The notes under the pieces: model-generated | Database searches by the model: none | What the model was told of the DNA's origin: nothing | Seen by the model: the letters and a program-made list of their open reading frames with translations, nothing else | Position numbers and translations under genes: made by a program | DNA from: an uncultured Chthonomonadaceae bacterium | Lineage (GTDB): Bacteria; Armatimonadota; Chthonomonadetes; Chthonomonadales; Chthonomonadaceae | Direction: 5' to 3' | DNA length: 64,000 nt | NCBI GenBank assembly: GCA_963835065.1 | Contig: CAWIEK010000057.1 | Span: 1 to 64,000, forward strand | Shown: positions 38,342 to 56,922 of the stretch, piece after piece | How positions within the stretch are numbered: position 1 is the first letter of the stretch | How the letters are laid out: the number at the start of each line of letters is the position of its first letter

Positions 38342-38866
38342 ATGGCGGAAACGGTGATTAGCAGCGAAGAGATTTACAAGGGTAGGATCGTGCATCTGCA
38401 CGTGGATACGGTGCGGCTGGAAAACGGCAACGAAGCCAAGCGGGAAATCGTTTCGCACGGCGGCGCAGTCTGCATCGTGCCGGTCATGGAAGATGGAACG
38501 GTTCTGCTGGTGAAGCAGTTCCGGCTGGCGACCGGCAAAGTGCTGCTGGAAATCCCCGCCGGAACGCTGGAAAAGGACGAAGACCCCGATGCCTGCGCCC
38601 TGCGCGAACTGGAAGAAGAGACCGGCTACAAAGCCGCCCATCTGCGCCCGCTCTTCACCACCTACCTGGCTCCCGGCTACTCCACAGAACTCATTCACGC
38701 TTACCTGGCAACCGGCCTGACCAAAACCCAAACCCACTTCGACGAGGGCGAAGACCTGGAACTGGTTCCCATGCCCCTCGAAGAAGCCGAGCAGCGCGTC
38801 CTCGCCGGCGAACTCCAGGACGCCAAAACCATCGCGGCCCTCCTCGTCGCAAGAAGAGTAATGTAA
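38342..38866 (+). CDS. nudF: NUDIX hydrolase, ADP-ribose pyrophosphatase-like
   Basis: REIVSHGGAV, KQFR, EIPAG..E..CALRELEEETG, DAKT. Confidence 0.9.
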   Translation: MAETVISSEEIYKGRIVHLHVDTVRLENGNEAKREIVSHGGAVCIVPVMEDGTVLLVKQFRLATGKVLLEIPAGTLEKDEDPDACALRELEEETGYKAAHLRPLFTTYLAPGYSTELIHAYLATGLTKTQTHFDEGEDLELVPMPLEEAEQRVLAGELQDAKTIAALLVARRVM

Positions 38867-39222
38867 CCACCCGCTGCGCTAGAGACACAGAGAAACAGAG
38901 GTTTCACAGAGGAAGAAAAGAAGAAAAGGAGAAGAGGAGAGAGGAAACCGCGAAACACACGAAATAAACGAAAAAAGAAGAAAAGAAAGAAGACAAAGCA
39001 AAAAGTTCGAAGAATGTTCCAAAACCGTTCGGCTTTTCTGCTTCCTTTAGCAATCCGGTTTAATCCTTGTAATCCTGTTAATCCTGTCTATTTCCTCTTC
39101 GCCTTTTTTTTCGTCTTGGTTCGTGTGTTTCGCGGTTCCCATCTCTCCTCTTCTCCTTTTCTCCTTTTCTTCTTTTCTCTGTGAAACCTCTGTGTCTCTG
39201 TGTCTCTAGCGCAGCGGGTGGT
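38866..39222. repeat. Nested modular palindrome P1 (~357 bp)
   Basis: ACCACCCGCTGCGCTAGAGACACAGAG..purine tract..AACCGCGAAACACACGAA mirrored at the right end; unpaired AATCCTGT module inside. Confidence 0.92.
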
Positions 39223-39230
39223 GAATTCTC

Positions 39231-39950
39231 CTACCGCGTGTGCAGGCCGCACTCCAGTTTGACGGAATTGGACCAGCGGCCCGCGCGCTCGTCTTCGCCC
39301 GTCTGAACGGCGCGGGTGCAATGGCGGCAGCCGATGCTTGGGAAGCCCTGATCGTGGAGCGGGTTGTAGGGAACCTCGTTGATGCGGATGTACGCCCACA
39401 CGTCGCGCTTGGTCCAGTTGGCAAGCGGGTTTACCTTGACGAGATTGAACTTTTTGTCCCATTCGATGATGTCGGCCTGCGCGCGGTCGGGAGTCTGGTC
39501 CCGGCGAATGGCGGAAATCCAGGCATCGTAACCCACAAGGGCGTTCTTGAGCGGCTCGATTTTGCGGATGCGGCAGCACTCGTCCGGCTGTGTGCCATAA
39601 ATCGGGCCACCCAACCGGCGTTCCATCTCTTCTACGGACTCGCGCGCTCGGACGTACTCTACGGTGATGCCGTACTGTTCGCGGATGCGCTCGCGCAATG
39701 CCAGCGTTTCCTGAAACTGGTAGCCGGTTTCCAGATTGAAAATGCGCGCGTCCCGCCCGCCGGGGATTTCCGACAGCATTGCCAGCAGGACGCATCCTTC
39801 CGCGCCGAAGGCGGTTGCCATCGTCAGCGAAGCGCCATAGGTCTGTACCGCCCACCGCAAAATCTCTTCGGGCGACTTGTCTTCAAACGTCAGGCTGAGA
39901 GCGTGAAGCTCTTCGGCGGAGTAGTGGGGTATGGTTGTTTGCGCGGCCAT
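39231..39950 (-). CDS. cysH: APS/PAPS reductase
   Basis: TAFG, LETGYQF, CCRIRK, SIGCRHCT (Fe-S type), ECGLH. Confidence 0.95.
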   Translation of the reverse strand: MAAQTTIPHYSAEELHALSLTFEDKSPEEILRWAVQTYGASLTMATAFGAEGCVLLAMLSEIPGGRDARIFNLETGYQFQETLALRERIREQYGITVEYVRARESVEEMERRLGGPIYGTQPDECCRIRKIEPLKNALVGYDAWISAIRRDQTPDRAQADIIEWDKKFNLVKVNPLANWTKRDVWAYIRINEVPYNPLHDQGFPSIGCRHCTRAVQTGEDERAGRWSNSVKLECGLHTR

Positions 39951-39983
39951 GCGTGACTTCCTGACCTCCCGCGGCAACGGGAA

Positions 39984-40035
39984 ATAAACTTGACTAATCT
40001 GATAAGATTATAGTACAATTGGCGCGGTTTGTCAA
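39984..40035. promoter_or_regulatory. Overlapping divergent sigma-70 promoters of cysH/cysC with an imperfect palindrome
   Basis: Minus TTGACA(40035-30)-N17-TATAAT(40012-07); plus TTGACT(39990)-N18-TACAAT; TAATCTGATAAGATTA dyad between them. Confidence 0.75.
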
Positions 40036-40076
40036 GACATTTTGCAGGGCAGGAACCAAAAGCGGGAGCCGAAAGT

Positions 40077-40625
40077 ATGGGGGCGCACAAGGGATTTATT
40101 TTGTGGTTTACCGGCATGTCCGGCGCGGGCAAGTCCACGCTTGCCGAACATCTGACGCAGGAATTTACTCAGCGCGGCTATAAAGCAGAGCTGCTGGACG
40201 GCGACGAGGTTCGCGCCCATTTGTCCAAAGGGCTGAGTTTTTCCAAAGAAGACCGCGATACCAATGTTCGCCGCATCGGGTGGGTGGCGCGGGTTCTGGC
40301 GCGGAACGGCGTGATTGCCGTGACCGCCGCGATTTCGCCCTACGCGGACATTCGCAACGAGATACGGGCGGAAACCGAAAAGGAAGGCCGCGCCGCGTTT
40401 GTGGAAGTGTTCGCCCATGCCCCTCTCGAAGCCCTCGTTGAGCGCGATGTAAAAGGGCTGTACAAGAAAGCGCTGGCAGGCGAAATAGCAAATTTTACGG
40501 GCGTGTCCGACCCCTACGAAGCCCCGCAAACCCCCGACGTCGTAGCCCGCACCAGTCAGGAAACGGTTCAGGAGTCGGCGGATCACATTCTCAAGTATTT
40601 GTCTGACGAAGGCTTGATTGGGTAA
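40077..40625 (+). CDS. cysC: Adenylyl-sulfate kinase
   Basis: [36 protein letters not shown]. Confidence 0.96.
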
Positions 40626-40937
40626 CGCGACCTGCCCCTGATCTACCCTCGGTATTTTAGACCGATGGAAATGTTAGTCTCCGCCTGGTTGCGAGTGGCG
40701 AACAGTTCTCAAATAAACGCGCCGCGTCACAAACAGCCGCCTGTCTCGTTCCCAAATAGCGAAGCAGGCGGCTGTCCCTCCGCCAACAAGCAGCATCCGG
40801 CCTGTGCCACAACCTTCTCACGCTCCGGTTTTGGATAGAGAAACATGCCTCAATAGCTGTTAGAAAAAGAGGTGGGAGAAGTTGCTGTCGCCTGAACGCG
40901 CCTTGACCCGAAGCGGTTTGTGCCGTATACTGACGGC

Positions 40938-42397
40938 ATGACCGACAACGCCCAACCCAACCCCGAACACGACGCCGAACAAACCGCGCGGCGAACCTTG
41001 GAACGCCTGCGCGACGCCACGCGGCACAGTCCGTATGAGAACAAGCTGTATCTTGTCGGCGGGCTGCTGCGGGATCGCGCGCTTGGCTTGCCCCCCGGCA
41101 GCGACCTTGACCTTGTGCTGGAGGGTGACGCCGTTGCCCTCGCGCATTTTCTTTATGGGTGCCGATTGTCGCGCCATTTTCCCGTCACCTATCCCCGGTT
41201 TGGAACGGCCATGCTCCACGTTGGGGTTTCCGACGACTTGGACGCGCCCGAAACCGCCGTAGAACTGGTATCCGCCCGCATGGAAAGCTACCAGTCCGAC
41301 TCGCGCAAGCCCGACGTGCGGCAGGGCAGTTTGCGCGACGATGTGTTCCGCCGCGATTTCACCATCAATACGCTGCTGGAAAACCTGCATACGGGCGAAA
41401 CGCTCGACCTGACCGGAACGCGCCCTGACCGATTTGCAGGCGGGTATCCTGCGCACCCCGCTGGAACCCCATGTCACGTTTTTCGACGATCCCCTGCGGA
41501 TGCTGCGCGCGGTTCGGTTCGCGGCCCGCTTCGGGTTTGAAATCGAAGCCGGAACCTGGCAGGCGATTTGTGAGGAATCCGAGCGCCTGCGCCCGCCGCA
41601 GATCGCGCATGAGCGCATCCGCGAGGAGTTCGTGAAGATCGCCAAACTGCCCGGCCCAAAATTTCGGCGCGGCATGGAACTGCTGCGCGCGTCCGGCCTG
41701 CTGGAAAAGTTTCTTGCGCCCATGCTGTCGATGATCGGCTGCGAACAAGGCCACTGGCATCCGTATGACGTGTGGACGCATACCCTTGTCGCGCTGGAAC
41801 ATCTGCCCGATACCGCCCGCCTCGAAATCCGGCTTGGCCTGCTCTGGCACGACTATGGGCAAGCCCCAAACGCAAACCCGAACCAATGACGCCAAAGGCA
41901 TCCGCTTTCCCGGACACCCGCAGGCCGGGGCTGAACTCGCCCGCGCCCTGATGAACCATCTCAAATTTTCCAGTGACGAAATCCGAGACGTGACCGCGCT
42001 GATTGCCAAACACATGCGCCTGGGCGAATACCGCCCCGACTGGACGGACGCGAGCGTCAAGCGCCTGATACGCGACTGCGGCTTTTATCTTGACGATTTG
42101 TTTATTTTAACCCGCTGCGACCAGGCCGCCGTCAACATTCCCGCCGAACAAGCCACTGATCTGGCCGCCCTCCGCGCCCGCATTGACGCACTCAACGCCG
42201 TCTCGAACGTAATGCAGATAGACAGCCCGCTCGACGGCAATGAAATCATGCAGGCGCTCGGTGTCGGACCCGGCCCGCACCTGCGCGACGCCAAAGCCTT
42301 TCTGACGGATGAAGTCATCGAAGGCCGCCTGCCGGAAGGCGACAAGGAAACTGCGCGTACCCTGCTGCAAAACTGGTGGCGCCAAAGACAAGGGTAA
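40938..42397 (+). CDS. cca: CCA-adding tRNA nucleotidyltransferase with HD domain; indels near 41417 and 41858
   Basis: LVGGLLRD, DLDL, RRDFTIN, DDPLRMLRA, ERIREEF, HD(Y)GKP spread over three frames. Confidence 0.88.
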
Positions 42398-42408
42398 CGG
42401 CAAAACCC

Positions 42409-42707
42409 TTCACCACAGAGGCACAGAGGCACAGAGGGGTCACAGAGGAAAACAAGGAGAGATAGAAACCGCGAAACACACGAACTAAACGAAAAAAGGA
42501 CAAAAAGAACAGAAGAACATATAGAAAAGTATCCAAAACCTGTAGAGTAACTGATTCCCTTTGCTCCCTTTGCCTCTTTGCGGTTCTTTTTGTTTTTCTT
42601 TTTTCGTTTAGTTCGTGTGTTTCGCGGTTCCCTCTCCTTGTCTCCTCTTCTTCTCTTCTTTTCTTCCCCTCTGTAACCCCTCTATGTCTCTGTGTCTCTG
42701 TGGTGAA
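42409..42707. repeat. Nested modular palindrome P2
   Basis: TTCACCACAGAGGCACAGAG..AACCGCGAAACACACGAAC mirrored; unpaired CTTTGC module. Confidence 0.92.
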
Positions 42708-42741
42708 AGCGCATTTTGTATTGGTTCTGAATGGGGGCGTA

Positions 42742-43873
42742 ATGGTCAGTTTAATACTCGGCGTTGTGCTGCTGGCAACGATTTTGTGGGATACGTTTGA
42801 AACCATTGTGCTGCCCCGCACGGTGACGCGCAAGTGGCGCTTTACCGTGCTGTTCTTTCGCGGTTTCTGGCTTGTATGGCAGCAGATGATTAAGCGGGTG
42901 CGCAAGAGCAATCGGCGGGAAGCGCTGTTGAGCGCGTTCGGGCCGCTGTCGCTGCTGATGCTGCTGGTCGTGTGGGCGCTGTCGCTGATCTTTGCGTTTA
43001 CCTTAATCCACTACGGCCTGGGGTCGCACACTGTGTCGCCCATACACCAACCGGGGTTTCAAGACGGACTTGTACCTGAGCGGCGTCACGTTTTTCACGC
43101 TGGGCTATGGCGACGTGGTTCCCGACGGCACGTTCGGGCGGGCGCTTGCCGTGTTTGAGGCGGGGACGGGGTTGGGCTTTCTGGCCGTTGTCATTGGATA
43201 TCTTCCCGTGATTTACCAGTCGTTTTCGCGGCGGGAAGCGGGCATTTCGCTGATGGACGCCCGCGCCGGTTCGCCCCCCACGCCTTCGGAAATGCTGCGC
43301 CGCCATGCCGAAGCCGGATGTATGACGATGCTCGTGGATCAACTGCACGAGTGGGAAAATTGGGCGGCGGATATGATGGAAAGCACACTTTCCTATCCCG
43401 TTCTGGCGTTTTACCGCTCACAGCATGACCGGGAATCGTGGCTGTCAAGTTTAATAACCATGCTGGATACGTGCGCCCTGATTCGCGTCTGCCTGGACAG
43501 CGCGGACAATGTGGAAGCCGACTGGCACAAGCCTTTGATGTGGCAGGCGCAACTCACGTTTGCGATGGCGCGTCACGCGGTGGTAGATATTGCCCTGATT
43601 ATGAAATGCCCGCCCACCTATTGCCCGGAGGACCGCCTGCCTGTGGAAGACCTGCGTAAAATCAAAGACATGCTGCGCCAGCACAATGTTTCCCTGTGCG
43701 CGTCCGGGGATGAAGACGCGCAATTGCGAAAAATGCGGAGTGAGTACGAACCTTACGTATACGCGCTTGGCGAACGCCTGCTGCTCACGCTTCCCACCTG
43801 GCTGCCGCCCGCAGACGGCAAGGGCGACAACTGGCAGCGCAGCGCCTGGGACCACGCCGATCATTTTGCCTGA
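42742..43873 (+). CDS. Potassium-channel family protein (Ion_trans_2), +1 indel near 43058
   Basis: FETIVLPR; YLSGVTFFTLGYGD selectivity filter; SYPVLAFYRSQH. Confidence 0.85.
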
Positions 43874-44014
43874 GTTCTTCCTTTGCGCTGTTTTTCTTTT
43901 GCTCTATCCAATTCTTCCTTCTAATTTTCTCTGCATATCCGTTGTGATGCAGGTATCTGCCTGGGCAAAAGGGAAATAAGAAGCGAGTGGAAGAACACAC
44001 AAAAGGAGTCAATC

Positions 44015-44778: not shown

Positions 44779-45089
44779 TTTCACCACAGAGGCACAGAGA
44801 CACAGAGGGGTCACAGAGGGGAAGAAAAGAAGAGAGAGAAGAAGAGAAGAAAAGGAGATGGGGAACCGCGAAATACGCAAACCAAGACGAAAAAAGAAAA
44901 ACAAAAAGAACTGCAAAGAGGCAAAGGTGGCAAAGAGAAGTAGCGACTTTGCAGAGTTTTGCTTGTTCCTGGTTTTCCTCATGTCTTTTTGTTCTTTTTC
45001 GTTTATTTCGTGTGTTTCGCGGTTTCTATCTCTCCTCCTTTTCTTCTTTCTCTGTGAAACCTCTGTGTCTCTGTGCCTCTGTGGTGAAA
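44779..45089. repeat. Nested modular palindrome P3 (inverted copy of the P2 layout)
   Basis: Same modules; unpaired GCAAAG module on the left arm. Confidence 0.92.
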
Positions 45090-45111: not shown

Positions 45112-45861
45112 ATGCCCCGGTTTGTTGGAGCCGCCGATATTCACTCGCATCCCCTGCCCGGTATTGACGATGGCGCGGGTACGCTGCAAGACAGCGTGGC
45201 GATGGCCTGCCTTGCCGCGCGGTATGGCACGAGTTTGATGGTCGCCACGCCGCACCGCTGGTATGGCGGGCGCGAAAACACGCCGGAATTATTGCTGCGC
45301 CTCACGCATGAAGTGAACGAGGCGCTGAAGGCCATTCCCTGCGGGCGCTTTATTCAAATTATTGCCGGGCAGGAAGTGCCCCTGCGTCCCGAAACCGCTG
45401 AAGAACTGAAACACCGTCGGCTGCTCACATTCGGGGATGCGGGCAAATACGCGCTTGTGGAACCCCCGTTCGATCACCTGCCCGACTGGACGGTAACGGC
45501 GCTTGCCGACATTCTGGAAATGGGAGTCACGCCCATATTCGCGCACCCGGAGCGCAACGCCGACGTGCAGCGCGACCCCACCGTTCTGCGTGAAATCGTC
45601 CGGCTTGGCGCGTATGTGCAGCTGACGGCTATGAGCGTGGAAGGCGTCAACGGCGAACGCGCCCAACGCGCTGCCTTCTGGATTCTGGACAACCATCTGG
45701 CGACTGTGATCGCGTCCGACTGCCATTCCCCCACGCGCTGGCGTCCGCCCACCATGCGTGGCGCGTACCACGTCCTGTGCCAAAAGTACAACGAACCCCT
45801 CGCCCGCAAACTCTGCATCACCAACCCCACCGCCCTCGCCTTAAGCAAGCCCCTCCCATGA
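45112..45861 (+). CDS. PHP-family tyrosine-protein phosphatase (CpsB/YwqE-like)
   Basis: DIHSH..PGIDDG, VATPH, GQE, AHPERN, IASDCH. Confidence 0.93.
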   Translation: MPRFVGAADIHSHPLPGIDDGAGTLQDSVAMACLAARYGTSLMVATPHRWYGGRENTPELLLRLTHEVNEALKAIPCGRFIQIIAGQEVPLRPETAEELKHRRLLTFGDAGKYALVEPPFDHLPDWTVTALADILEMGVTPIFAHPERNADVQRDPTVLREIVRLGAYVQLTAMSVEGVNGERAQRAAFWILDNHLATVIASDCHSPTRWRPPTMRGAYHVLCQKYNEPLARKLCITNPTALALSKPLP

Positions 45862-45867
45862 AGGCAT

Positions 45868-45977
45868 CGGTGTTCAGGTATTCGGTGTTCAGGTATTCGG
45901 ATTGCCGCTTTTCGATTTTCGATTGCCCTTCCTCTGTCTCCTCTTCTCCTTTTCTCCTTTTCTTCTCTTCTTCCCCT
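45868..45977. repeat. Hybrid repeat tract (GGTRTTC, GATTTTC, pyrimidine module)
   Basis: cggtgttcaggtattcggtgttcaggtattcgg..ttttcgattttcgattg..ctcttctccttttctcc. Confidence 0.8.
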
Positions 45978-45990
45978 CGGCAAATATGCC

Positions 45991-46018
45991 TGAGACTCGC
46001 CGCTCCGGTTGCCGATAA
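45991..46018 (+). promoter_or_regulatory. Possible sigma-28 (FliA) promoter
   Basis: Exact GCCGATAA -10 at 46011-46018 upstream of flgB; weak -35. Confidence 0.45.
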
Positions 46019-46149
46019 TCGGAGAGAAGGCCATTCACAGCAACATATCTACTCCCGCTCGCGCTTGTACCCGGCTCTTCCAATGCGAACTCCCAACGCA
46101 TTGTCCCAATGCCTAATGCCTAGTGCTAATGCCTAACCCGGAGCCGGCC

Positions 46150-46536
46150 ATGTTCGACAAACTTTTCGGCGGCGATGTCTTCGTTGCCAGTACGCGCGCC
46201 CTTGACGCCTACGCCCTGCGCCATCAGACCATTTCCAACAACCTCGCCAACATCAACACGCCTGGCTACAAGCGGCAGGAAGTGCATTTTGAGGATCAGC
46301 TTGCGGGCGCATTGGCGGCCCGCAATGCCCCCGCTGCTGGCGCGTTAAATTCGGTTTCACAGGTCGCGCCCACCGTCGCCACGATTGGCAGCACGTCCCT
46401 GCGCGCCGACGGCAACAATGTAGACATGGAATCCGAAAACATTGATCTCGCCGTCAACACCCTGCGCTTTGAAACCCTGTCGCAGCAAGTCGGCGGCTAT
46501 TTCAGCGGCTTGAAGTCAGTAATCAATTCAAAGTAG
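46150..46536 (+). CDS. flgB: Flagellar basal-body rod protein FlgB
   Basis: ISNNLANINTPGYKR, RADGNNVDMESE. Confidence 0.95.
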   Translation: MFDKLFGGDVFVASTRALDAYALRHQTISNNLANINTPGYKRQEVHFEDQLAGALAARNAPAAGALNSVSQVAPTVATIGSTSLRADGNNVDMESENIDLAVNTLRFETLSQQVGGYFSGLKSVINSK

Positions 46537-46658
46537 TCAGTAGCGAGTAGTCAGTAGTCAGTAGACAATGTTTGTTCTCTGATAGCTTTGTATGTCAACA
46601 CAATCTTAGAGTAGAAGGGCATTTCTACTGACTACTGACTACTCGCTACTGACTACTT
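46531..46658. repeat. Perfect 35-bp inverted repeat of GTAGTCA heptamers
   Basis: 46531-46565 is the exact reverse complement of 46624-46658. Confidence 0.95.
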
Positions 46659-46670: not shown

Positions 46671-47114
46671 ATGCCTCTCGGTTCTTCCATGCACATCAGC
46701 GCGTCGGGTTTGACGGCGGAACGCCTGCGCCTGGATGTCATCAGCAACAATATCGCCAACGTCAACACGCCCAACTTTCGGCGGCAGGAAGTGACCTTCG
46801 CGTCCCGCGCCGGGGGTGGCAGCAGTTTCGCTTCCCAACTGGCGGCTGCGCGCGCAGGCAGCCTGTCCGGGGAGGGAGCGGGCGAGGGCGTACAGGTGTC
46901 CGCCATACGCCCGGATATGGACCGCCCGTTCAAAGTAGTTCACGATCCCTCCAATCCCGCCGCCGACAAGGACGGCAACGTCAACATGCCTAATGTCGAA
47001 CCCATCATCGAAATGGTAGACATGATGGCCGCCACCCGCGCCTACGAAGGCGGCGTCTCCGCCATCACCGCCGCTAAACAAATGCAGCAACGCGCGCTCG
47101 ATATAGGGAAATAG
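46671..47114 (+). CDS. flgC: Flagellar basal-body rod protein FlgC
   Basis: ISASGLTAERLRLDVISNNIAN, DPSNPAAD..MPNV..EMVDM..RAYE; GGAG RBS. Confidence 0.96.
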   Translation: MPLGSSMHISASGLTAERLRLDVISNNIANVNTPNFRRQEVTFASRAGGGSSFASQLAAARAGSLSGEGAGEGVQVSAIRPDMDRPFKVVHDPSNPAADKDGNVNMPNVEPIIEMVDMMAATRAYEGGVSAITAAKQMQQRALDIGK

Positions 47115-47216
47115 GCATCAGGCATTAGGCATCAGGCATTAGGAAAATTCTTCATACGCCAAATTTTCCTTCTAACGCCTTGCTCCTAATGCCTAATGCC
47201 TAATGCCTGATGCCTA
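47112..47216. repeat. 33-bp inverted repeat of TAGGCAT heptamers
   Basis: 47112-47144 vs 47184-47216, 32/33 match. Confidence 0.95.
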
Positions 47217-47220: not shown

Positions 47221-47574
47221 ATGAACATTACCGCCATAACCCCAATTACAACCATTCTCGCGCCGGAACGGAGTTTGAAATCCGACCCGGTTCCCGAAGC
47301 GATTTCGTCCGCGCCCGGCGCGTCGTTCCCGATGGAAGCCGGCAGCGCGCCGACCAAATCGTTTGGCGCAATGCTTTCGGACGCCATTGCCGGAGTGAAT
47401 CAGGCGCAGGTACACGCCGGCGATATGACCGCGCGCTTTGCGGCGGGCGAACCGATGGACGTGCATCAGGTCATGATCGCCTCCCAGGAAGCCAGCGTCG
47501 CCCTGAGCCTCGCCCTGCAAGTCCGCAACAAACTCGTGGACGGTTATACTGAAATCATGCATGTGAATGTTTAG
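47221..47574 (+). CDS. fliE: Flagellar hook-basal body protein FliE
   Basis: SFGAML..VN..DVHQVMIA..QVRNKLVDGYTEIM. Confidence 0.95.
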   Translation: MNITAITPITTILAPERSLKSDPVPEAISSAPGASFPMEAGSAPTKSFGAMLSDAIAGVNQAQVHAGDMTARFAAGEPMDVHQVMIASQEASVALSLALQVRNKLVDGYTEIMHVNV

Positions 47575-47577
47575 GAG

Positions 47578-47699
47578 GTAGTCAGTAGTCAGTAGTCAGT
47601 AGCCAGTAGAAATGCCTCTCTCCTCACAGATGCGCGGCGCAGAAACATCTTACAGGAAACGGTTCCTCTACTGACTACTGACTACTGACTACTGACTAC
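47578..47699. repeat. 33-bp inverted repeat of GTAGTCA heptamers
   Basis: 47578-47610 vs 47667-47699, 32/33 match. Confidence 0.95.
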
Positions 47700-47719
47700 T
47701 TCCCCAAGGAGACTCGACG

Positions 47720-49448
47720 TTGCTAGACCGCGCACGAGAGTGGTGGGAAAAACTGGGGCGTGCCAACCAACTGGCCCTGGTGCTGACGACGGTGGGCGTA
47801 TTGATCGCGCTCATCGGCTTTGTCACCTGGGCGGGTACGCCGGACTATGTGCCCCTGTTTTCCAATTTGTCGGCGCAGGATGCCAACGCCATTGCCGAAA
47901 AGCTGAAGGAATCCAACGTGCCTTCCAAGCTGGCGCAGAGCGGCGCGACCATTGAAGTGCCCGCGCAGTTTGCCGATGAGCAGCGCATAAAGATGGTGGC
48001 GGCGGGACTGCCCGCCGCGTCCGCCAATGCCACGACGGGAATGAGCGACGCGCTGACGGGCCAGCACATGGGCGATACGTCGGCGATTGAAGACCTGCGG
48101 ATTCGCTCCGCGAAGGAAAACCAGGTCAGCAAAAGCCTGATGATGATGGACCCCATCGCCAACGCGGTGGTGCAGTCCGCCGCTTCCGACAATAATCCGC
48201 TGATGTTGAGCAATCACGAAACGTCGGCAGCCGTGCTTGTCACCACCAAGCCGGGACATTCGCTGACGGATGAAAACGTGCATGCCATTGTGCGGCTCAC
48301 GCAGATGTCGTTTACCGGATTACAGGAAAAGAACATCAGCGTGACTGATTCGCAGGGCAACGTGCTTTGGGATGGCAACCATGCGGGCGGCGTAGGCGGC
48401 GGTGAGGGCATAGATAAAGCGCGGCGCAAGCTGGAAACTGAGAAGCGCGCGGAAATTCAGAACGCCCTCAATATCGTCTTTGGCGCGCACAACAGCATTG
48501 CCACCGTCAGCATCGAACTGAATTCCGATAGGCGGCAGGAGCACCGCGTGGAAGTGCTGCCCGGCGCGGTCACGATGAAGGAAAACAATGAAACGCATCT
48601 GGAAGGCGCAGGCAAAATAACCAGCACGACGGCTGCGGGCGCGACGGCCAACGTCGGCGGGCCGCCTCCCGCCAATCCCGCGCCGGGCGGCGGGCCGGGA
48701 GTTCCCGGCTATGCGTCGGCGGCGGTACAGCGAGCCTAAAGGCATTTTCAACGAATCAAAGTCGATCACGACTTCGGAACCCGGCAAGACGGAAATCACC
48801 ACGGAAAGCGGGCCGGGCAAGATCGAGAAAATGAGCGTCAGTGTGCTTGTAGACACCAACAAGTACAAAGACCCCGCTGTGCTGGCCGACATCAAAGCTA
48901 AGATCAAGGAAATGGTTGCCGTCAGCATCGGTATCTCCCCCACCGAAGCCGCCAATGGCCGCATGGTATCGGTTGTAGATATGCCGTTCGACCATACGCA
49001 GGAGATGCAGGATCAGGCGGCGGGCGAGCAAGCGCGCCGCGCCGACATGCTCAAACAGCTTGCCGGCCTGCTGATTCCCTTCCTGATTATGGGCATGGCG
49101 CTGTTCCTGCTGGCCCGCGCCCTGCGCAGGTCCAACCCGGCTGCGTTCGCCAAAAATTCCCTCCTGCCCGCCGGGGCCGGCGGGGGCATGGGAGCCTTGC
49201 CGCCGGGTTCGTCCCTGATGCTGGATGGGAACAGCCTGCCGATGCCCGGCCAGATGGTGGGCAGCGCGGACATGATTGATGGCGAAGACGGCCCGCTCGC
49301 GCTCTCCCATGGCAGCAGCGCGCCCAAGAGCTTTGAAGTGATCGAAGAAACATTCGACGCCAACCTGGAAAGCATCCTGCACCTGACCCGCGCCAAGCCG
49401 GACATGGTCGCCATGCTGCTGAAGAGTTGGCTGAGTGAGGAACAGTGA
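47720..49448 (+). CDS. fliF: Flagellar M-ring protein FliF (divergent), indel near 48725
   Basis: TM + YVPLFSNLSAQDANAI, NISVTDSQG; second frame IEKMSVSVLV, TM, PDMVAMLLKSWL; lies between fliE and fliG. Confidence 0.88.
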
Positions 49449-49450: not shown

Positions 49451-49566
49451 AAGTTGATAGTTGATAGTTGATAGTGGTCGGCGGGAAGGCGCTTTCCTTA
49501 GCCGCGTAATACGAGGAGGCATGGTTGAACAAGCCTTCTGAACTATCAACTATCAACTATCAACTT
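49451..49566. repeat. Perfect 25-bp inverted repeat of GTTGATA heptamers
   Basis: 49451-49475 vs 49542-49566. Confidence 0.95.
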
Positions 49567-49582: not shown

Positions 49583-50608
49583 GTGAGACCCAGTCCCGCT
49601 ACGCAATTGAACAGTCGGCAGAAAGCGGCCATTTTGTTGGTCGCGCTTGGCCCGGAAGCATCGGCCAAGATATACAAGCACCTGCGCGAGGATGAAATCG
49701 AGAACATGACGCTGGAAGTGGCGCGCATGGGGAAGATCGCCCCGGAAGCGCGGCGGCAGGTTGTGCATGATTTCCATGAAATGTGCATCGCGCAGGAAGT
49801 AATTTCCGAGGGCGGCATAGATCAGGCGCGTAAGGCGCTGGAAGCCGCGTTCGGGGCGGAAAGAGCCAACGAAGTCGTGAACCGCGTCACGCAGGCGCTG
49901 CAAGTGCTGCCGTTCGACTTTATCAAAAAGACCGACCCGACGCAATTACTGTCCTTTATTCAGGACGAACACCCGCAAACGATTGCTTTGATTCTGGCGC
50001 ATCTGGATTCCAAGCAAGCGGCTGCCGTTGTGTCCGGGCTGCCACAGGAACTGCGGGCGGAAGTGGCGCGGCGCATCGCCATCATGGACAGAACTCCCCC
50101 GGAAGTGATCCGCGAAATCGAGCGGGTTTTGGAGCGCAAACTGTCGGGCGCAGTCGTGACGCAGGCGTTTACCGCTGCCGGCGGCGTGAAGGCGCTGGTG
50201 GAAGTGCTGAATTATGTAGACCGCACAACGGAAAAGACTATTCTGGAAAACCTGTCGGAAACCAGTCCCGAACTGGCCGACGAAGTGAAAAAACTGATGT
50301 TCGTGTTCGAGGACATCACGCTTCTGGACGACGGCTCCATTCAGAAGGTGCTGCGCGAAGTGGACAGCAAGGAACTGGGCCTGGCCTTGAAGGGCGTGGG
50401 CGAGGAAGTGCAGTCGCGCATCTTCAAGAACATGAGCGAACGGGCGGCCACCATGCTCAAGGAAGATATGGAGTTTATGGGGCCGGTTCGCCTGCGCAAT
50501 GTCGAAGAAGCGCAGCAGCGCATTGTCGGCGTAATCCGGCGTCTGGAAGAAAACGGCGAGATCGTCGTCGCGCGCGGCGGTGGCGGCGGCGATGAGATCA
50601 TTATCTGA
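49583..50608 (+). CDS. fliG: Flagellar motor switch protein FliG
   Basis: QKAAILL, EHPQTIALIL, MFVFED, NMSERAA. Confidence 0.98.
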   Translation: MRPSPATQLNSRQKAAILLVALGPEASAKIYKHLREDEIENMTLEVARMGKIAPEARRQVVHDFHEMCIAQEVISEGGIDQARKALEAAFGAERANEVVNRVTQALQVLPFDFIKKTDPTQLLSFIQDEHPQTIALILAHLDSKQAAAVVSGLPQELRAEVARRIAIMDRTPPEVIREIERVLERKLSGAVVTQAFTAAGGVKALVEVLNYVDRTTEKTILENLSETSPELADEVKKLMFVFEDITLLDDGSIQKVLREVDSKELGLALKGVGEEVQSRIFKNMSERAATMLKEDMEFMGPVRLRNVEEAQQRIVGVIRRLEENGEIVVARGGGGGDEIII

Positions 50609-50767
50609 TTTTCGATTTTTGATTGCCGATTTTCGATTGATGCCTCATTGCCACTCGATTCGCGTGAGTACAACTTGAAAGTGTCCCATTTGGAGAAGCA
50701 GGAACAGTGCAGAAAATTCACAATCCACAAGCGGCAATCGAAAATCGAAAATCGAAAATCGAAAATC
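50607..50767. repeat. 33-bp inverted repeat of GATTTTC heptamers
   Basis: 50607-50639 vs 50735-50767, 30/33 match. Confidence 0.93.
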
Positions 50768-50772
50768 CCTTT

Positions 50773-51615: not shown

Positions 51616-51721
51616 CCTTATGGAAGCATCATGCAAAAACGACCTGGCCGCGCTGATACGCGCCGCCGAGAACCCTATGGGAACTCGGCGGCGCGTTCTA
51701 TTCCGTACCATGATCGGCGCA

Positions 51722-52483: not shown

Positions 52484-52732
52484 CCCAAGCCTCCTGTCAA
52501 GCAACCCTGTCAAGCGTAGATACCCGTTGTGCTTCTTCTCAACGCCGAGAAAGCCCGAAGAGATGTTGTTGGTTTCCACAATAGTACACATATCTTCCCG
52601 TTTTTACCAATTAAAATGTACCTTATTTCATAGACAAAATTACCTATTTCTATCTTCCCCACACTATTTACTCCGTATTTTACCTGCTTATTTGTATGAA
52701 TTGGCCTTGCCTATTCCCGACTGCCATTGCCT

Positions 52733-52796
52733 GCGCCGAAAAATGCCAAATCATGTATAATATAGGTAGCAGTCTTGCGGATTCATCGTCTTACAA
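52733..52796 (+). promoter_or_regulatory. Promoter block (contains TATAAT), duplicated at 54895-54958
   Basis: 58/64 identity between the two copies. Confidence 0.75.
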
Positions 52797-52851
52797 TAAA
52801 CCGGAGTGGCGAGGAAGCGACGCGGCTGCGGGAAGCACAGGGAAAACTACC

Positions 52852-53517
52852 ATGTCGGTGTTCCTGATACTGATGATTGCCGGATTGTTTGGAATGGCGC
52901 TGCTGGCGATACCCGCGCTCGGGCATCACGGGCATGGGGGCGCGGGTCTGCACGGCCACGCGCTGCCCCACGCAACCCACGCCGCTATCGGACACGCGCA
53001 TGGAACCGGCACAACACTGCCGGCAAACGCGCAGCATGGCGCTCCGCCTGCCGCGCACAATCCCGGCGGCAAATCGGAAGCCGTTGCTAATGCGGCGGGC
53101 GCGGCCCGGTTCATCCCAACGCCGCGCATCGTGTTCAGCATTATCGCCGCGTATGGCGCGTTCGGCTATGCGGGCGTGGCGGCGTTCCACTTAGCGCCCG
53201 CCCTTGTCGCTGTTCTTGCCCTCGTTCCCGCCGTGCTGATGGAGCGCCTTGCCCTGACGCCGCTTTGGAACCTGCTGCTCGGCTTTCAGGGCGAACCCTG
53301 TACGCCCGTTACGCACTTAGTCATGGCCGAAGCCGAAGCCGTGACTCCGTTCCGCAACGGTAAAGGCATCGTGCGCGTCACGCATGACGGGCGCGACGTG
53401 CAGTTCAGCGCGCAACTGACGGGTGAACACGCCAATATGCCCATTCGCGTCGGCGACAAATTGCGGATTGAAGAAGTGGAAGCGGACGGCGAGCGCGTCA
53501 AAGTTTCTGTAGGATAG
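52852..53517 (+). CDS. NfeD-like membrane protein (His-rich loop, C-terminal OB fold)
   Basis: TM, HHGHG tract, AFGYAG TMs, AVTPF..GKGIV..VGDKLRI; upstream of a flotillin. Confidence 0.75.
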   Translation: MSVFLILMIAGLFGMALLAIPALGHHGHGGAGLHGHALPHATHAAIGHAHGTGTTLPANAQHGAPPAAHNPGGKSEAVANAAGAARFIPTPRIVFSIIAAYGAFGYAGVAAFHLAPALVAVLALVPAVLMERLALTPLWNLLLGFQGEPCTPVTHLVMAEAEAVTPFRNGKGIVRVTHDGRDVQFSAQLTGEHANMPIRVGDKLRIEEVEADGERVKVSVG

Positions 53518-53519
53518 TG

Positions 53520-53562
53520 AACCGCGAAACACACGAAATAAACGAAAAGAAGACAAAAAAGG
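53520..53562. repeat. Lone left arm (AACCGCGAAACACACGAAATAAACGAAA) of the palindrome family
   Basis: Identical to the module in P1. Confidence 0.85.
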
Positions 53563-53739
53563 CAGATAACAACCTGTAAATCAAAGCCGTTGCGGAACGT
53601 TTTATTGCTTCCACGACGGCTTGCTGTCTGAGTAGGCAAAGCAGTATATTGCCGCGCCGATGGCGAATACGTTGTGGAGATTAATTTCGCTTGGATAGAT
53701 ACACTCCCGGCAATTTGCTGCGGGGTGAAAAGGAGAATT

Positions 53740-54861
53740 ATGGCCGGCAAGAAGAACGAACTGACGCGGCGCGAACTTGTGCGAACTGCCGGGTATGGCA
53801 TGGCAGCTGCGGCGCTGGCGCTGCCCGAAATGGCGTTGGGACAGGAAGCGGGCAAGCCTATCGGCGTGGCTCTGGTCGGCGGCGCGCACATCCACACGCC
53901 GCAGTACGTCCGCGCCCTCAAAACGCGCAAGGGCGTGACGGTCAAGAGCGCGTGGGATCACGATCCTGCCCGCGCGCAAAAGCGGGCGCAGGAGTTAGGA
54001 TGCAAACCCGCCGCAGACCTCAAAGAAATCTGGAACGACCCCGACATTGCCGCAGTGGTGATTTGCTCGGAAACCAACCGCCACCACGATCTGGTCATGG
54101 CGGCGGCGCAGGCCAAAAAACACATGTTCGTGGAAAAGCCGCTGGGCATTACGGCCAAAGAAAGTTTTGCGATGGCCGAAGCCATTGAACGCGCGGGCCT
54201 GCTGTTTACGACGGGCTACTTCATGCGCTGCGCTCGCGAACATTTGTTCCTCAAGGAGCAGGTCGAAAAAGGCAGTTTCGGCAAAATCACGCGGGTTCGC
54301 GGCTCCAACTGCCACAACGGCGCATTGGGCGGCTGGTTCGACGGCGAGTACCGCTGGATGGCCGACCCCAAAATCGCGGGCGTGGGCGCCTTTGGCGACC
54401 TGGGCACACATGCGCTCGACATTCTGATGTGGATGCTTGGCCCGGTTGCCACCATCACAGCGGACATCAAGGGCGTTATCAACCGCTATCCCGGCTGTGA
54501 CGAGAGCGGCGAAGCGCTGCTTAAATTTGAAAGCGGCGTGACGGGCACGCTTGCGGCGGGATGGGTGGATACGGACAACCCTGTCACGTTCGAGATTAGC
54601 GGCACGGAAGGCCATGCCGCGATTGTGCAGGGGTTGCTGTATTTCCAGAGCGGCAAGGTTGCCAAAGCGGATGGGCGCGAACCCTGGGGAACGCTGCCGC
54701 CCGCCACGCCCCCGCCCATCACGCAGTTCCTCGACGCGCTGGAAGGCAAGCCGCATGAGCATCTCGTCAAGCCCCATGAAGCAGCTATGCGCGTCGCCGT
54801 CATGGAGGCCGCGTACAAGGGAGCCAAAGCGCAAACGTGGGCCAAAGTGACGCAGGCGTAA
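53740..54861 (+). CDS. Gfo/Idh/MocA oxidoreductase with Tat signal
   Basis: TRRELV, HMFVEKPL, GAFGDLGTH. Confidence 0.93.
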   Translation: MAGKKNELTRRELVRTAGYGMAAAALALPEMALGQEAGKPIGVALVGGAHIHTPQYVRALKTRKGVTVKSAWDHDPARAQKRAQELGCKPAADLKEIWNDPDIAAVVICSETNRHHDLVMAAAQAKKHMFVEKPLGITAKESFAMAEAIERAGLLFTTGYFMRCAREHLFLKEQVEKGSFGKITRVRGSNCHNGALGGWFDGEYRWMADPKIAGVGAFGDLGTHALDILMWMLGPVATITADIKGVINRYPGCDESGEALLKFESGVTGTLAAGWVDTDNPVTFEISGTEGHAAIVQGLLYFQSGKVAKADGREPWGTLPPATPPPITQFLDALEGKPHEHLVKPHEAAMRVAVMEAAYKGAKAQTWAKVTQA

Positions 54862-54894
54862 ATCAACCCCGCCTGTTCCCGCTCGCCCCTGTCC

Positions 54895-55032
54895 GCGCCG
54901 AAAAATGCTAAATCATGTATAATACAGGTAGCGGCCTTACGGATTCTTCGTCTTACAACACGCAAGCGTGGCGGTGACAAACTGCGGGTTGAGGAAGCGG
55001 GCTGCGAGCGCGTCAGAGTTTCTGTGGGTTGA
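54895..55032 (+). pseudogene. Deleted duplicate of the NfeD-like gene (promoter + last ~19 codons)
   Basis: Promoter copy fused to GDKLRVEEAGCERVRVSVG* (intact gene ends GDKLRIEEVEADGERVKVSVG*). Confidence 0.8.
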
Positions 55033-55033
55033 T

Positions 55034-55184
55034 TTCACCACCAATACGCGAAGAACACCAAGAGAGGCAAAGGAACGAAATTTAAGTTCGATGTGGACTT
55101 GTCTCGTTCCATGCTGTAGGGTGCAGTTTTCTTCTTTGATTTCTCTTCTTTTTTGCTTGGTGTTCTTCGTGTCTTGGTGGTGAA
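55034..55184. repeat. Palindrome P5 with CACCACCAAGACACGAAGAACACCAAG-type arms
   Basis: ttcaccaccaatacgcgaagaacaccaag..cttggtgttcttcgtgtcttggtggtgaa. Confidence 0.85.
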
Positions 55185-55218
55185 TACTCTGTGTTGATGA
55201 GTTTCGTGGAGGTGCGCA

Positions 55219-56640
55219 ATGGAACTGATTGTTGTGTTGGGCGCGATATTCGCCCTGTTTGTGTTTACCATAGCGATGGTCACGGCGTTTCTGCGCAGCG
55301 TTCCCGCCGGGCAGATTCTGCTGGTGAAAGGCTGGAGCGGGGCCGGCCTGCATATTTTTCGCGGGCCGACCAAAGCGTTCGTCGTGCCCGTGTTCAACGA
55401 AGTGCGCTCCATACCCGCGCAGGCGATCAATGTAGACATTGAAATCACCGACCAGACGGCGGATGTGGACGCCAACGGCAGGCCCGCGCCCGTCAAAGTC
55501 ACGGTTCGGGCGTCGGCCATCGTCAGCGTGGGCGAAAGCGACGCGATGGTCAATACGGCGGCGAACAAGTTCTTTTCCAAGCCGCCCGGAGATCAGCTTT
55601 CCACGCTGACGGACGTGCTATCGTCTGCGGGACGCCGCGCCATCAACCTGCTTAAGCACGATCAGTTGTTTAACGCCCGCCCCGCGCAGGCCATTGCCCC
55701 GACCGGCAGCGCCCTTGTTGTGCCGCCGGTAGACGCGCTCACCGTCGCGCGCCCCGGCACGGATTTGACGGTGCGCGACGATGACGAACTGGCCGTGATT
55801 ATCAAGGATGCGTGTTCGCGCGAACTGCTGGATTTGGGATTGTCGTTCAACAGTCTGAACATCAAGGCGGTTTTGAGCGAAGTGGCCGAAGCGCGACGCC
55901 GCGAGTCCGCCGCCCGCGCCAAAGCCAGCGCGGATGTGGTGCAGGCGCAGGAAGAACAACGCGCCCGTATCGCGCAATTGGAAGCGCAGCAAAAAGTCAA
56001 CGATCAGGAACGCGCCCTGAACATGCAGATCGCCTCCAACGGCGCGTCCATTGCCCGCGCTGAAGCCGAAAAGCAGGCCGCCTTCCGCGAACAGCGCTCG
56101 GCGGAACTGGCGGCAACCCAGATCACGCAGGCCAACGCGGACGCGCAGCAAAACGTGATTCAGCAGGAAGCGGAAGGCAAAGCGCAGGCCGCGCGCATAC
56201 TCGCCATTGCCGAAGCGGAAGCCGCTGCGATTCGCATGAAAGCCGAAGCGCTGTCGCAAGTCGGCGGCGCGTACCTTGATCTGCGGCGTCTGGAAATGGC
56301 CCCGGCCCTGACCCGCGAAGTCGCCAACGCCCTTGCCAACGGGCAATTTGTCAACTTCGGCACATCAGGTGATGGCGGTCACAGTGCCGCCGCGTCCGGT
56401 TCCGATGACGTGATGCGCGTGGTGCAAACCCTGATGGCCGCGCAGGTCGTCACGGGCGGCAACGGCATGAACGGCAACAATAACAACGGCGGTAACGGCA
56501 ACGGCAACGGTAACGGTGTACGGCGCGAAATGCTTCCCGCCATCCCCGTAACCACCACAATGGATGTCGAAGCGCCCATTGTGACCCGCCCGACGGTGGC
56601 GCAAAACCCGCCGCCGCGCCCACCGCAAACACGCAGATAA
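55219..56640 (+). CDS. Flotillin/SPFH-family membrane protein
   Basis: N-terminal TM, FVVPVF, AEA-rich coiled coil, Asn/Gly tail. Confidence 0.85.
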   Translation: MELIVVLGAIFALFVFTIAMVTAFLRSVPAGQILLVKGWSGAGLHIFRGPTKAFVVPVFNEVRSIPAQAINVDIEITDQTADVDANGRPAPVKVTVRASAIVSVGESDAMVNTAANKFFSKPPGDQLSTLTDVLSSAGRRAINLLKHDQLFNARPAQAIAPTGSALVVPPVDALTVARPGTDLTVRDDDELAVIIKDACSRELLDLGLSFNSLNIKAVLSEVAEARRRESAARAKASADVVQAQEEQRARIAQLEAQQKVNDQERALNMQIASNGASIARAEAEKQAAFREQRSAELAATQITQANADAQQNVIQQEAEGKAQAARILAIAEAEAAAIRMKAEALSQVGGAYLDLRRLEMAPALTREVANALANGQFVNFGTSGDGGHSAAASGSDDVMRVVQTLMAAQVVTGGNGMNGNNNNGGNGNGNGNGVRREMLPAIPVTTTMDVEAPIVTRPTVAQNPPPRPPQTRR

Positions 56641-56922
56641 AGGAAGAAAAGGAGAAAAGAAGAAAAGGAGAAAAGGAGAGGGAAACCGCGAAAAACGCGA
56701 AACAAACAAAAACAGAACAATTAAAGAAATAGACAGGATTAATGGGATTAGAAGGATTAAACAGGATTATGAACCGAGAAGAGAAGCCTGTTTGTTCTAA
56801 ATATGCGGCGGCAACTGCAAATTTGCCCCTGTTCTTTTCGTATTTTTTCGTTTATTTCGTGTGTTTCGCGGTTCCCCATCTCCTTTTCTCCTTTTCTTCT
56901 TTTCTTCTCTCTTCTTCTCTCC
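56641..56922. repeat. Nested modular palindrome P6
   Basis: Purine tract + AACCGCGAAA mirrored; unpaired (ACAGGATTA)n module. Confidence 0.9.

Follow-up and report, generated by a model that had tools for sequence, protein, structure and literature searches.

Long nested palindromes at gene ends of a Chthonomonadaceae genome are likely a little-studied kind of selfish DNA

What are the long palindromes that stand directly behind genes in this genome, and how did they come to be there? In the window (the whole 64,000-nucleotide stretch of DNA that was analysed), an earlier note made from the letters alone had described five nested palindromes and two half elements, assembled from interchangeable modules. 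All five palindromes are real and lie where they had been placed:

38866..39222, no strand assigned: P1, compound palindrome A'-B-C ... D-C-B-A'
42409..42707, no strand assigned: P2, A-C ... E-C-B-A, of the C-E core family, with the left B much shortened
44779..45089, no strand assigned: P3, A-B-C-E ... C-B-A, of the C-E core family, in the opposite orientation to P2
55034..55184, no strand assigned: P5, simple F...F palindrome, of a dispersed F family with a common loop
56641..56922, no strand assigned: P6, B-C-D ... C-B, of the C-D core family, directly behind the stop codon of a flotillin-like gene
53520..53547, forward strand: single C arm, 2 nt past the stop of a relocated nfeD-like gene
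1..38, forward strand: single left arm of a AACCATGATT-type module, at the very start of the contig

All elements of the family in the window lie between protein-coding genes and none in rRNA. The palindromes start 0 to 11 nt behind a stop codon, in line with the ~15 nt noted before; the stop ahead of P5 comes from the remnant of a deleted gene. P1 lies where a Nudix gene and a cysH-like gene converge, between their stops; its first base overlaps a TAA stop, and both of its arms carry A', which is module A with a 10-nt insert. The half element at 1..38 is not of module D; it belongs to the AACCATGATT type, and arms like it flank GxxExxY genes at two loci of relatives (L117 and L121).

Could such structures arise by chance or from faulty assembly? 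We rejected both explanations on the basis of the fold z-scores against shuffled sequences (−22.0 for P1 and −13.3 for P3), the C-module pattern (9 occurrences in the window and 0 in 100 shuffles), orthologous shells in the sister genome G002, and the presence of the arms in contigs from independent DNA sequencing runs. The contigs of those runs break at compound elements.

Copies are also plentiful outside this region. The genome of the window, which is 92% complete, holds 189 two-armed copies of the family, 101 of them compound. All two-armed clusters number 997, of which 672 have an identical outer module, and ~2% of the genome lies in arm clusters. Each arm begins AACC or CACC and is an array of three to five short units that always face inward; the units are 8 to 10 nt long in the class of modules A to F. 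Neighboring arms of different modules face each other in 321 cases and stand back to back in 18. Layers nest up to four deep in a near-fixed order, with A outside C (70:0), C outside D (39:0), and 430 of 458 stacked pairs obeying the majority order. The fixed order proposed earlier thus nearly holds but is not strict genome-wide, since it is broken by E and G (C outside E 25:7, C outside G 11:23) and by one G002 element with A inside C. The innermost module had likewise been described as unpaired. Among the 61 copies with C on both arms, the same innermost module was never found on both sides, but it is not always alone, as 13 of the 61 have inner modules on both sides or a differing one opposite (D with I or G). 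Matched innermost modules are missing because cores descend from a few asymmetric masters: core families with common unique sequence comprise 25 C-D, 21 C-E, and 13 D/I/G combinations of 62. Compounds of the form C...C account for 18 of the 101, and copies with C outermost fall into three classes. A search of the genome contigs for A followed by C returned at least 104 loci, mostly chance matches; among those listed, 6 had two or more module matches, different modules were stacked at 4 of the 6, and no GxxExxY gene lay within 600 nt of any of the 6.

The window also contains a sister class of palindromes with heptamer units, at flagellar genes:

46531..46658, no strand assigned: heptamer palindrome, CAGTAGT unit, flgB-flgC junction
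47112..47216, no strand assigned: heptamer palindrome, AGGCATT unit, flgC-fliE junction
47574..47703, no strand assigned: heptamer palindrome, CAGTAGT unit, fliE-fliF junction
49451..49566, no strand assigned: heptamer palindrome, GATAGTT unit, before fliG
50607..50767, no strand assigned: heptamer palindrome, CGATTTT unit, behind fliG

The CAGTAGT unit also encloses a four-helix-bundle gene (L004). At the flgB-flgC junction, G002 and G023 hold other units, and G001 is empty. The flgC-fliE junction was the most polymorphic site examined: it is empty in G002, and the contigs of runs X2 and X3 have 98 nt of other sequence there and those of X5 have 147. This class includes 130 in-frame inserts in unrelated proteins. 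Cyanobacterial STRR repeats are a related comparison to heptamer repeats.

How do these elements spread? Cores, single arms, and whole elements are exchanged between sites. An identical 138-nt stretch spanning a C-E core occurs in a G shell and in an A shell, at unrelated loci with unrelated flanks. The GxxExxY gene L001 lies between arms A' and F, its orthologue in G002 (L108) lies between F and F, and the swap starts at the shared terminus. The earlier description of the palindromes as nonautonomous elements is supported by hundreds of dispersed copies, common nonrepetitive cores, empty orthologous junctions in a sister species, and gene-bearing forms with the same arms. The proposal that they insert into one another stands insofar as the C core moves between shells, but the majority of compounds trace back to a handful of preassembled masters and single arms change hands as well, something that nested insertion alone leaves unexplained.

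One potential explanation is that these are ordinary MITE-like elements moved whole by a transposase, with younger copies inserted in the center of older ones and asymmetric central deletions removing one inner arm. The two arms of one element indeed agree far beyond chance (A/A' type in 74 of 76 versus 38 when shuffled; insert variant in 26 of 40 versus 12.9), and families with common loops multiply as units. Of 22 A shells that lack a complete C core, 16 retain an AACC or GGTT stub (A, G, and F shells together, 35 of 64 versus 20.5 expected), and a degenerate duplication of 5 to 9 nt, none of them clear, is readable at ~3 of 24 empty/filled pairs (~82% identity). However, the ends are ragged (0 to 20 nt from the stop, with several terminal variants), one arm alone was replaced at L001, and the outer arms are unmatched in 97 of the 130 in-frame inserts. 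No transposase was recognized among 50 open reading frames between facing arms, in a list judged by eye, and the two full-length Y1 transposase genes carry unrelated hairpins. We regard whole-element transposition as unlikely.

We then compared the same junctions in related genomes. At the P1 site, G002 has A'-D...B-A' and G001 has C-I...I-C; at P2 and P3, G002 keeps an A shell, which holds a stub of the C end at the first site and a decayed C stub at the second. The P5 junction holds an F shell in G002 as well, an F palindrome follows the end of the nfeD-like gene there, and the P6 site reads C-(D)...C in G002, and in G001 D and I are enclosed there by another outer module. Over 2.58 Mb of G002, to which 199 of the 997 two-armed elements could be mapped, most mapped sites hold a different module and 24 are empty. 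Loops are orthologous when the arms match (ranks 0, 0, 1, and 3 of 27) and not when the arms differ (3 of 24 top-ranked; median rank, 13), and we therefore rejected the possibility that arms are rewritten in place around an inherited loop. Near-identical haplotypes can also hold different elements at one junction. Two pairs swap whole elements between identical flanks of 240/173 nt and 124/40 nt, and the final codons of the upstream gene differ by synonymous changes; such swaps are explained equally well by old allelic polymorphism plus ordinary recombination and by directed copying. In ~300 kb of near-identical haplotypes, we found no clean empty/filled pair, and most of the 79 arm clusters were unchanged. 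One haplotype pair has promoter-like loop motifs in common under different arms.

The synonymous changes inside swapped blocks favor a further alternative, in which the arms are host-tolerated or domesticated protein-binding sites that spread long ago, and mosaics and swaps reflect passive host recombination between dispersed copies and lineages. The arms stay near-identical while loops diverge, A shells are common to G002 at 12 of 17 mapped sites, and orthologous G arms in three genomes (L002, L125, and L114) have changed their unit in both arms together; the NTS repeats of the Ssn nuclease offer a precedent in the available part of PMC11893778. This alternative is distinctly improbable in our view, given that the C module has a scattered distribution (5 of 41 genomes, in 3 genera), that heptamer repertoires differ sharply between sister species, that in-frame inserts occur in so many unrelated proteins, and that the 138-nt core found unchanged at two unrelated loci is of recent date.

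Do the palindromes instead act as RNA? Long RNA hairpins at operon junctions, kept for processing or termination in the manner of 23S rRNA intervening sequences, would account for their very stable predicted folds and for their placement right behind stops: arms crowd stop codons (81 of 136 versus 16 expected), and convergent-gene junctions, which make up ~14% of junctions, are enriched (52 of 152). A four-helix-bundle gene of the intervening-sequence type lies inside module B arms. Where elements interrupt coding sequence, 33 of 130 have matching outer arms, as against 686 of 867 in intergenic positions; the hairpin therefore probably matters at the RNA level. A retained RNA role is nevertheless highly improbable. 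G-U pairs show no excess among arm mismatches on the transcribed strand (233 versus 208, P = 0.25) or in the heptamer class (273 versus 285), many stacks have arms that are unable to pair, and junctions in sister genomes are empty or hold unrelated elements. Rfam 15 gave 0 matches in the window at the gathering score. The RNA hairpins offered by the earlier note find no support from sequence.

If not a transposase, which protein accompanies the arms? The earlier statement that similar arms flank GxxExxY genes, with none in the window, proved right on both counts: the genome has three such genes, all elsewhere and all between family arms (A'...F, G...G, and E...E), a link that for the gene and its arms draws on 25 loci of one order. 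In relatives, namely G001 and G006, D and C arms also surround GxxExxY genes. The single GxxExxY gene of G006 lies between C arms in a genome with 93 C copies, yet G012, with 56 C copies, has its one gene between other arms. The partner proteins match TIGR04256 at 140 to 146 bits against a cutoff of 35, and also PF13366 (PDDEXK_3), and D75, E85, and K87 are invariant in 23 GxxExxY sequences. The predicted structure has a PD-(D/E)XK fold, with weak and generic matches (best Foldseek E value, 1.1e-3; best Z, 7.7), and the profile found one weak unrelated match among sequences of solved structures. Ten proteins whose arm units end in AG, including all three from this genome, form one branch (95/92) in a tree of 23 related sequences in which arm labels were assigned by hand and kin share labels.

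The four-helix-bundle genes (L004 to L006) lie between arms of module B and of two heptamer units and not of A or C to F; one of the three (L006) is between B arms. We know of no catalytic activity for this protein, and because its class is nevertheless the more abundant, the GxxExxY protein may not be the mobilizer. RAYT as partner is not supported: of four Y1 transposase matches, two are the full-length genes with unrelated hairpins, and the two weak ones have module arms on one side only, 380 to 500 nt off. Nor are the cores internally deleted GxxExxY genes, as tblastn detected no gene remnant in them (best E value, 0.017).

The reading that we prefer, and hold to be somewhat more probable than not, is that the palindromes belong to a family of cassettes with repeat arms and lack the gene that other members carry, which encodes a small predicted GxxExxY nuclease (for module B, a four-helix-bundle protein). 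They would be selfish DNA, likely spread by nuclease-initiated break-and-copy repair and not by classical cut-and-paste. The nuclease would recognize its cognate arm type and nick or cut near the arm end or at a look-alike host sequence. Each broken end would then prime by pairing over a few bases with an arm in some other copy, whichever it may be (at the AACC/CACC terminus, a purine tract, or a stop-codon context), and be extended inward by copying, and the two newly made strands would meet and join at the center. A copy drawn from one donor would be faithful, one drawn from two donors would be a mosaic whose inner arms do not match, and the outer-to-inner order would persist as long as copying stayed in register. 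The inner modules C, D, and I, for which we found no cognate gene in this genome at 92% completeness, may ride in the shells A, G, and F, which have one, and central deletions would later shorten many copies. Copies with C outermost exist in this genome although no C-type gene was found in it, which counts against a nuclease partnership.

A bolder version, which we entertain as a tentative possibility, makes the arm and not the element the moving unit of a distinct selfish DNA. Tiny PD-(D/E)XK nucleases, with every clade specialized for a single repeat unit, would open DNA at gene ends, and both ends would be repaired by copying inward-facing arrays from any donor, without a transposase. If so, the same process would give rise to palindromes nested in order like Russian dolls, displace elements already present at a junction, and place in-frame inserts in over 100 proteins, and its enzymes would form a new set of small sequence-specific nucleases.

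Are such elements already known? The literature searched (main texts, mostly outside subscription journals) yielded no description of them; repeats of this kind could appear in the supplements of PMC11893778 and PMC3733652. On comparison, they are probably best read as like REPIN/RAYT or Ssn/NTS in logic and as members of neither. In the available parts of PMC3116915 and PMC3733652, REPINs are gene-less extragenic inverted doublets in hundreds of copies; their repeats also flank the one or few partner genes, and singlets are remnants. The inverted doublet is the commonest unit here too. PMC3733652, as far as available, also reports hybrid dimers and REPs inserted in other palindromes. However, REPs are described there as small hairpins with GTAG or CGTC tails, whereas our arms, which begin AACC or CACC, are tandem arrays of 7- to 10-nt units; the RAYT partner is an HUH Y1 transposase, in contrast to a PD-(D/E)XK or four-helix-bundle protein; and our elements nest up to four layers in near-fixed order. 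Ssn/NTS systems share an IS-like layout: cognate inverted repeats enclose the gene of a small single-domain nuclease and occur in hundreds of gene-less copies (PMC11893778, in part). They differ in that Ssn is a GIY-YIG enzyme with 20- to 50-nt hairpin repeats, defined by site-specific cleavage of single-stranded DNA, whereas our partner is a predicted PD-(D/E)XK protein, known from its sequence and predicted fold, with unit arrays of several nesting, swapping families.

Like prokaryotic MITEs and Rickettsia palindromic elements in the part of PMC10969869 available, ours are short, noncoding, dispersed in many copies, and bounded by terminal inverted repeats, with in-frame protein insertions in the heptamer class. 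The 24 empty/filled pairs gave no constant target duplication or sharp ends, and no cognate transposase was recognized between facing arms. Unlike MITEs, our elements exchange arms singly, and many copies have unmatched arms. The heptamer repeats of Xanthomonas and Nostoc are read as quadruplex forming and not tied to mobile elements in the accessible text of PMC4692102, which names no partner gene or nesting, whereas our modules have 8- to 10-nt units. Open reading frame-bearing 23S rRNA intervening sequences resemble our elements in having a four-helix-bundle gene between inverted arms (module B, L006). They are defined by excision from RNA, whereas ours are known as DNA, lie outside rRNA, and have another protein as the main partner of A and C to F.

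PDDEXK_3, the partner family, is listed as of unknown function in the available part of PMC3424549. The arms give the GxxExxY proteins a concrete candidate substrate, clade by clade, and make their function directly testable. Ordered nesting, single-arm swaps, and replacement at the same junction constrain how repeats without a transposase spread in bacteria, a question still open for REPINs and heptamer repeats. The family could also yield small nucleases programmable by family, as Ssn did.

The five palindromes that the earlier note had reported in the window were recovered at the same positions, and further palindromes lie at flagellar-operon junctions.

38866-39222, palindrome P1
42409-42707, palindrome P2
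44779-45089, palindrome P3
55034-55184, palindrome P5
56641-56922, palindrome P6
Five flagellar-operon junctions, palindromes of similar design with arms of the heptamer class (a sister class)

Arm alignments of P1 to P6 revealed that the outer modules (arm types made of short-unit arrays, lettered A to I) pair almost perfectly and that pairing stops within module C. Fold z scores were -22.0 for P1 and -13.3 for P3, and the module C pattern matched 9 times in the window versus 0 in 100 shuffles. Elements start 0 to 11 nt behind a stop codon, as had been proposed, and an Rfam search of the window returned no match. The half element at positions 1-38, which had been assigned to the family, represents another module and lies where the contig begins. 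Stacks of two to three left arms plus two to three differing right arms, wholly unpaired, occupy window junctions at 61796-61947, 13781-14095, 20195-20310, and 45860-46136. Frameshifts, probably long-read errors, split window genes at 40920-42397, 42700-43873, 47720-49448, and 56937-58041, which from their translations we take to be tRNA nucleotidyltransferase-like, ion-channel-like, fliF-like, and rlmN-like.

How widespread is this family? Hand-made patterns for 29 modules, run on the Chthonomonadaceae assembly (G000; 8.0 Mb, 92% complete), gave 3,921 arm matches, among which loose patterns admit some chance singles (A, 198; C, 226; G, 126; B, 120; F, 99; E, 92; D, 83). These form 2,165 arm clusters, with 997 two-armed, A/C-I type modules in 189, and 101 compound (stacked modules); copies are dispersed genome-wide. 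About 300 kb of the assembly is duplicated at 92-99.7% identity (e.g., contig end C57:857-29944, on the window's contig, versus C58); these stretches are probably strain haplotypes.

Gene positions came from a simple in-house gene caller, and start codons are therefore less reliable than stops. Arms abut gene boundaries with their outer ends and almost never with their inner ones. Where co-directional spacers leave 100 to 600 nt of room, 81 of 136 elements begin at most 20 nt from a stop codon (15.7 expected), a bias that may stem from targeting or from survival. Convergent genes flank 52 of 152 A/C-I elements, and divergent genes flank 7 (all junctions, ∼14% each). The stop codon falls within the terminal motif in 23/114 A arms and 28/53 G arms. 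Pairs of empty and filled sites have short host-unit matches at the junction, and ∼3 of 24 such sites carry a possible decayed duplication of 5 to 9 nt, at 18% divergence.

The fixed outer-to-inner order A-B-C-(D/E) proposed earlier was largely borne out. Outer-to-inner counts were 32:0 for A/B, 70:0 for A/C, 21:0 for A/D, 28:0 for A/E, 31:1 for B/C, 39:0 for C/D, and 12:0 for C/I; however, C/E (25:7) and C/G (11:23) break the order. Counting every module, the majority order holds for 430 of 458 stacked pairs, and neighboring arms of differing modules are facing in 321 cases and back to back in 18. The innermost module had been described as unpaired. Indeed, of the 61 elements in which both arms carry C, none repeats the same inner module on its two sides, and in 47 a single inner module stands on one side alone; yet 13 depart from this pattern, with D plus a far-side I or G, or a lone G-I arm, and 1 has none. 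The lack of repetition is explained by the descent of cores (the enclosed parts) from few families: among 62 extracted cores, 25 belong to a C-D family and 21 to a C-E family, the rest being D/I/G combinations. Each core family shares non-repetitive sequence, and no nuclease gene remnant was found in the 62. Within an element, the left and right arms match in their outer features (A or A', that is, A with an insert, 74/76 versus 38 shuffled; insert variant, 26/40 versus 12.9 shuffled), and agreement weakens toward the interior. The A' insert is a 10- to 12-nt mini-hairpin with several variants, equally placed in both arms of about half of the A elements (e.g., window 38871-38880).

All three GxxExxY genes of G000 lie between such arms (L001, A'...F; L002, G...G; L003, E...E, with a further E palindrome), in agreement with the earlier note. 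Its three four-helix-bundle genes lie between B arms (one) or heptamer arms (two). Because the arms of compound palindromes elsewhere enclose genes of two classes, compounds join arms from two gene classes. GxxExxY genes are present in 19 of 41 genomes of relatives; among the 25 loci listed, most have repeat arms, with D at L115, C at L111, and H at L131. The C pattern occurs in only 5 of the 41 genomes. G006 has 93 C copies and one GxxExxY gene, between C arms, but G012 is a counterexample, with 56 C copies and a GxxExxY gene between other arms. In a tree of 23 proteins from related genomes, with arm labels assigned by hand, the 10 with arm units ending in AG form one branch (support, 95/92), which includes all three G000 proteins. 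The C, D, and I arms were assigned to other branches, and no cognate gene for them was found in the 92% complete assembly. PMC3424549 gives PDDEXK_3 as a family of unknown function. The AlphaFold model of the GxxExxY protein (pLDDT, 93.9) weakly resembles Cas4, Holliday-junction resolvases, and other PD-(D/E)XK nucleases (best E, 1.1e-3; Z, 7.7), and D75, E85, and K87 are invariant; the protein is presumably a nuclease.

We then asked whether parts are exchanged. A G shell (C12:2386) and an A shell (C29:40397), a shell being the outer module pair, share an identical 138-nt stretch that comprises the greater part of a C-E core; the flanks are unrelated. The L001 arms, A'...F, are F...F in the orthologue of the sister species G002, and the change starts at the terminus common to A' and F. 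Behind a relocated nfeD-like gene in the window stands a C arm; at this gene end, G002 carries an F palindrome. This gene and its promoter moved upstream of an oxidoreductase gene (52719-53517), leaving a deleted remnant (54886-55033) before a flotillin-like gene; the breakpoint at the 3' end of the nfeD-like gene matches the position of an arm terminus. G002 DNA is ∼82% identical to G000, and the comparison covered 2.58 of 7.5 Mb and mapped 199 of 997 elements. Orthologous junctions hold the following.

P1 in G002, A'-D...B-A'
P2 and P3 in G002, A shells with C stubs (leftovers of the C end)
P6 in G002, C-(D)...C
G001 (another relative), other modules again

Elements with A outermost keep A at 12 of 17 G002 sites, heptamer sites mostly hold another unit, and 24 mapped sites are empty. 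Among 28 simple pairs with measurable loops, matching arms go with orthologous loops (ranks 0, 0, 1, and 3) and differing arms with non-orthologous ones (3/24 top-ranked). Loop orthology is thus lost where arms differ, and therefore whole elements were replaced or inserted independently.

The near-identical duplicated stretches hold 79 arm clusters, most of them unchanged. One haplotype pair has a four-helix-bundle cassette on one side and a gene-less element of another unit on the other (240/173 identical flanking nt), and a second pair has B arms versus heptamer arms (124/40). The cassette swap also takes in three synonymous changes within the final codons of the gene upstream, which makes the donor an allele of that locus; old polymorphism accounts for this no less than directed copying does. 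As a mechanism for the elements, we consider passive recombination among domesticated sites improbable. At the flgC-fliE junction, contigs of the independent runs X2 and X3 have 98 nt of other sequence and those of X5 have 147 nt, the left break always being at 47104. Unrelated insertions found in one haplotype only are 129 nt with inverted ends (C28 versus C1:4329), 93 nt with a 10-nt direct repeat (C55 versus C47:33570), and 968 nt (C8 versus C20:26123). A presumably dnaE-like gene (G000:C23:30056, named from its translation) and its copies in C8 and C23 carry a hairpin insert at one loop, with three arm types in three near-copies; a frameshift in one copy may be a sequencing error.

Arm mismatches showed no G-U excess on the transcribed strand (233 versus 208), nor did the heptamer class (273 versus 285), and we hold an RNA role of the elements to be very unlikely. 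Called genes contain 130 two-armed in-frame inserts, only 2 with A/C-I modules. Outer arms are unmatched in 97 of these 130 versus 181 of 867 between genes, a contrast that suggests selection against hairpins in coding RNA and a spread that does not depend on a hairpin. Heptamer inserts are always read in the same frames (e.g., window 60981-61249). Among paralogues that we take to be DUF1553-like, six carry differing modules at an equal position and two lack an insert. The 79 simple copies of a CAGTAGT class have near-identical arms of ∼4-5 units and an ∼55-nt loop with a degenerate shared consensus. The Avd-like ring is pentameric, and such arms may fit it.

What could move these parts? Under nuclease-initiated break-and-copy repair, which we somewhat favor, the nuclease would make its break directly at, or close to, an arm end or a look-alike, each broken end would be primed on a donor arm via a few matching bases, and copying would proceed inward until the ends join mid-element. 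Such a route would explain why arms face inward, why the order stays in register, why inner arms lack a match, how cores and single arms are swapped, and why ends are ragged. In a rival route, whole elements would transpose, nest by insertion, and lose central parts by deletion; this is consistent with the AACC or GGTT stub kept in 16 of the 22 A shells that lack a core, and we consider it a less probable, though not negligible, explanation.

The family assignment itself we regard as firm, with good confidence. The logic is like that of REPIN/RAYT (PMC3116915, PMC3733652), but here there is no GTAG/CGTC tail and no Y1 partner. Two full-length Y1 transposase genes, L298 (C42:76532) and L299 (C51:103107), are flanked by their own hairpins, a separate REPIN-like system; at C20:4275, one haplotype has a gene-less hairpin of that kind and the other lacks it. 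Ssn/NTS (PMC11893778) is also alike in logic, but the partner here is not GIY-YIG. PMC4692102 reports a stop-codon bias for Xanthomonas/Nostoc heptamer repeats, which our heptamer class shares. The elements here have no rRNA location. Stacked modules also occur in a few distant genomes (4 among the 104 loci listed), and the literature searched held no description of the arms, partner genes, or nesting. The elements are real, mobile in an evolutionary sense, and undescribed in that literature. What G000 newly provides is a nesting in which arms of two gene classes combine in an ordered way, together with direct sequence evidence for the exchange of cores, single arms, and whole elements.
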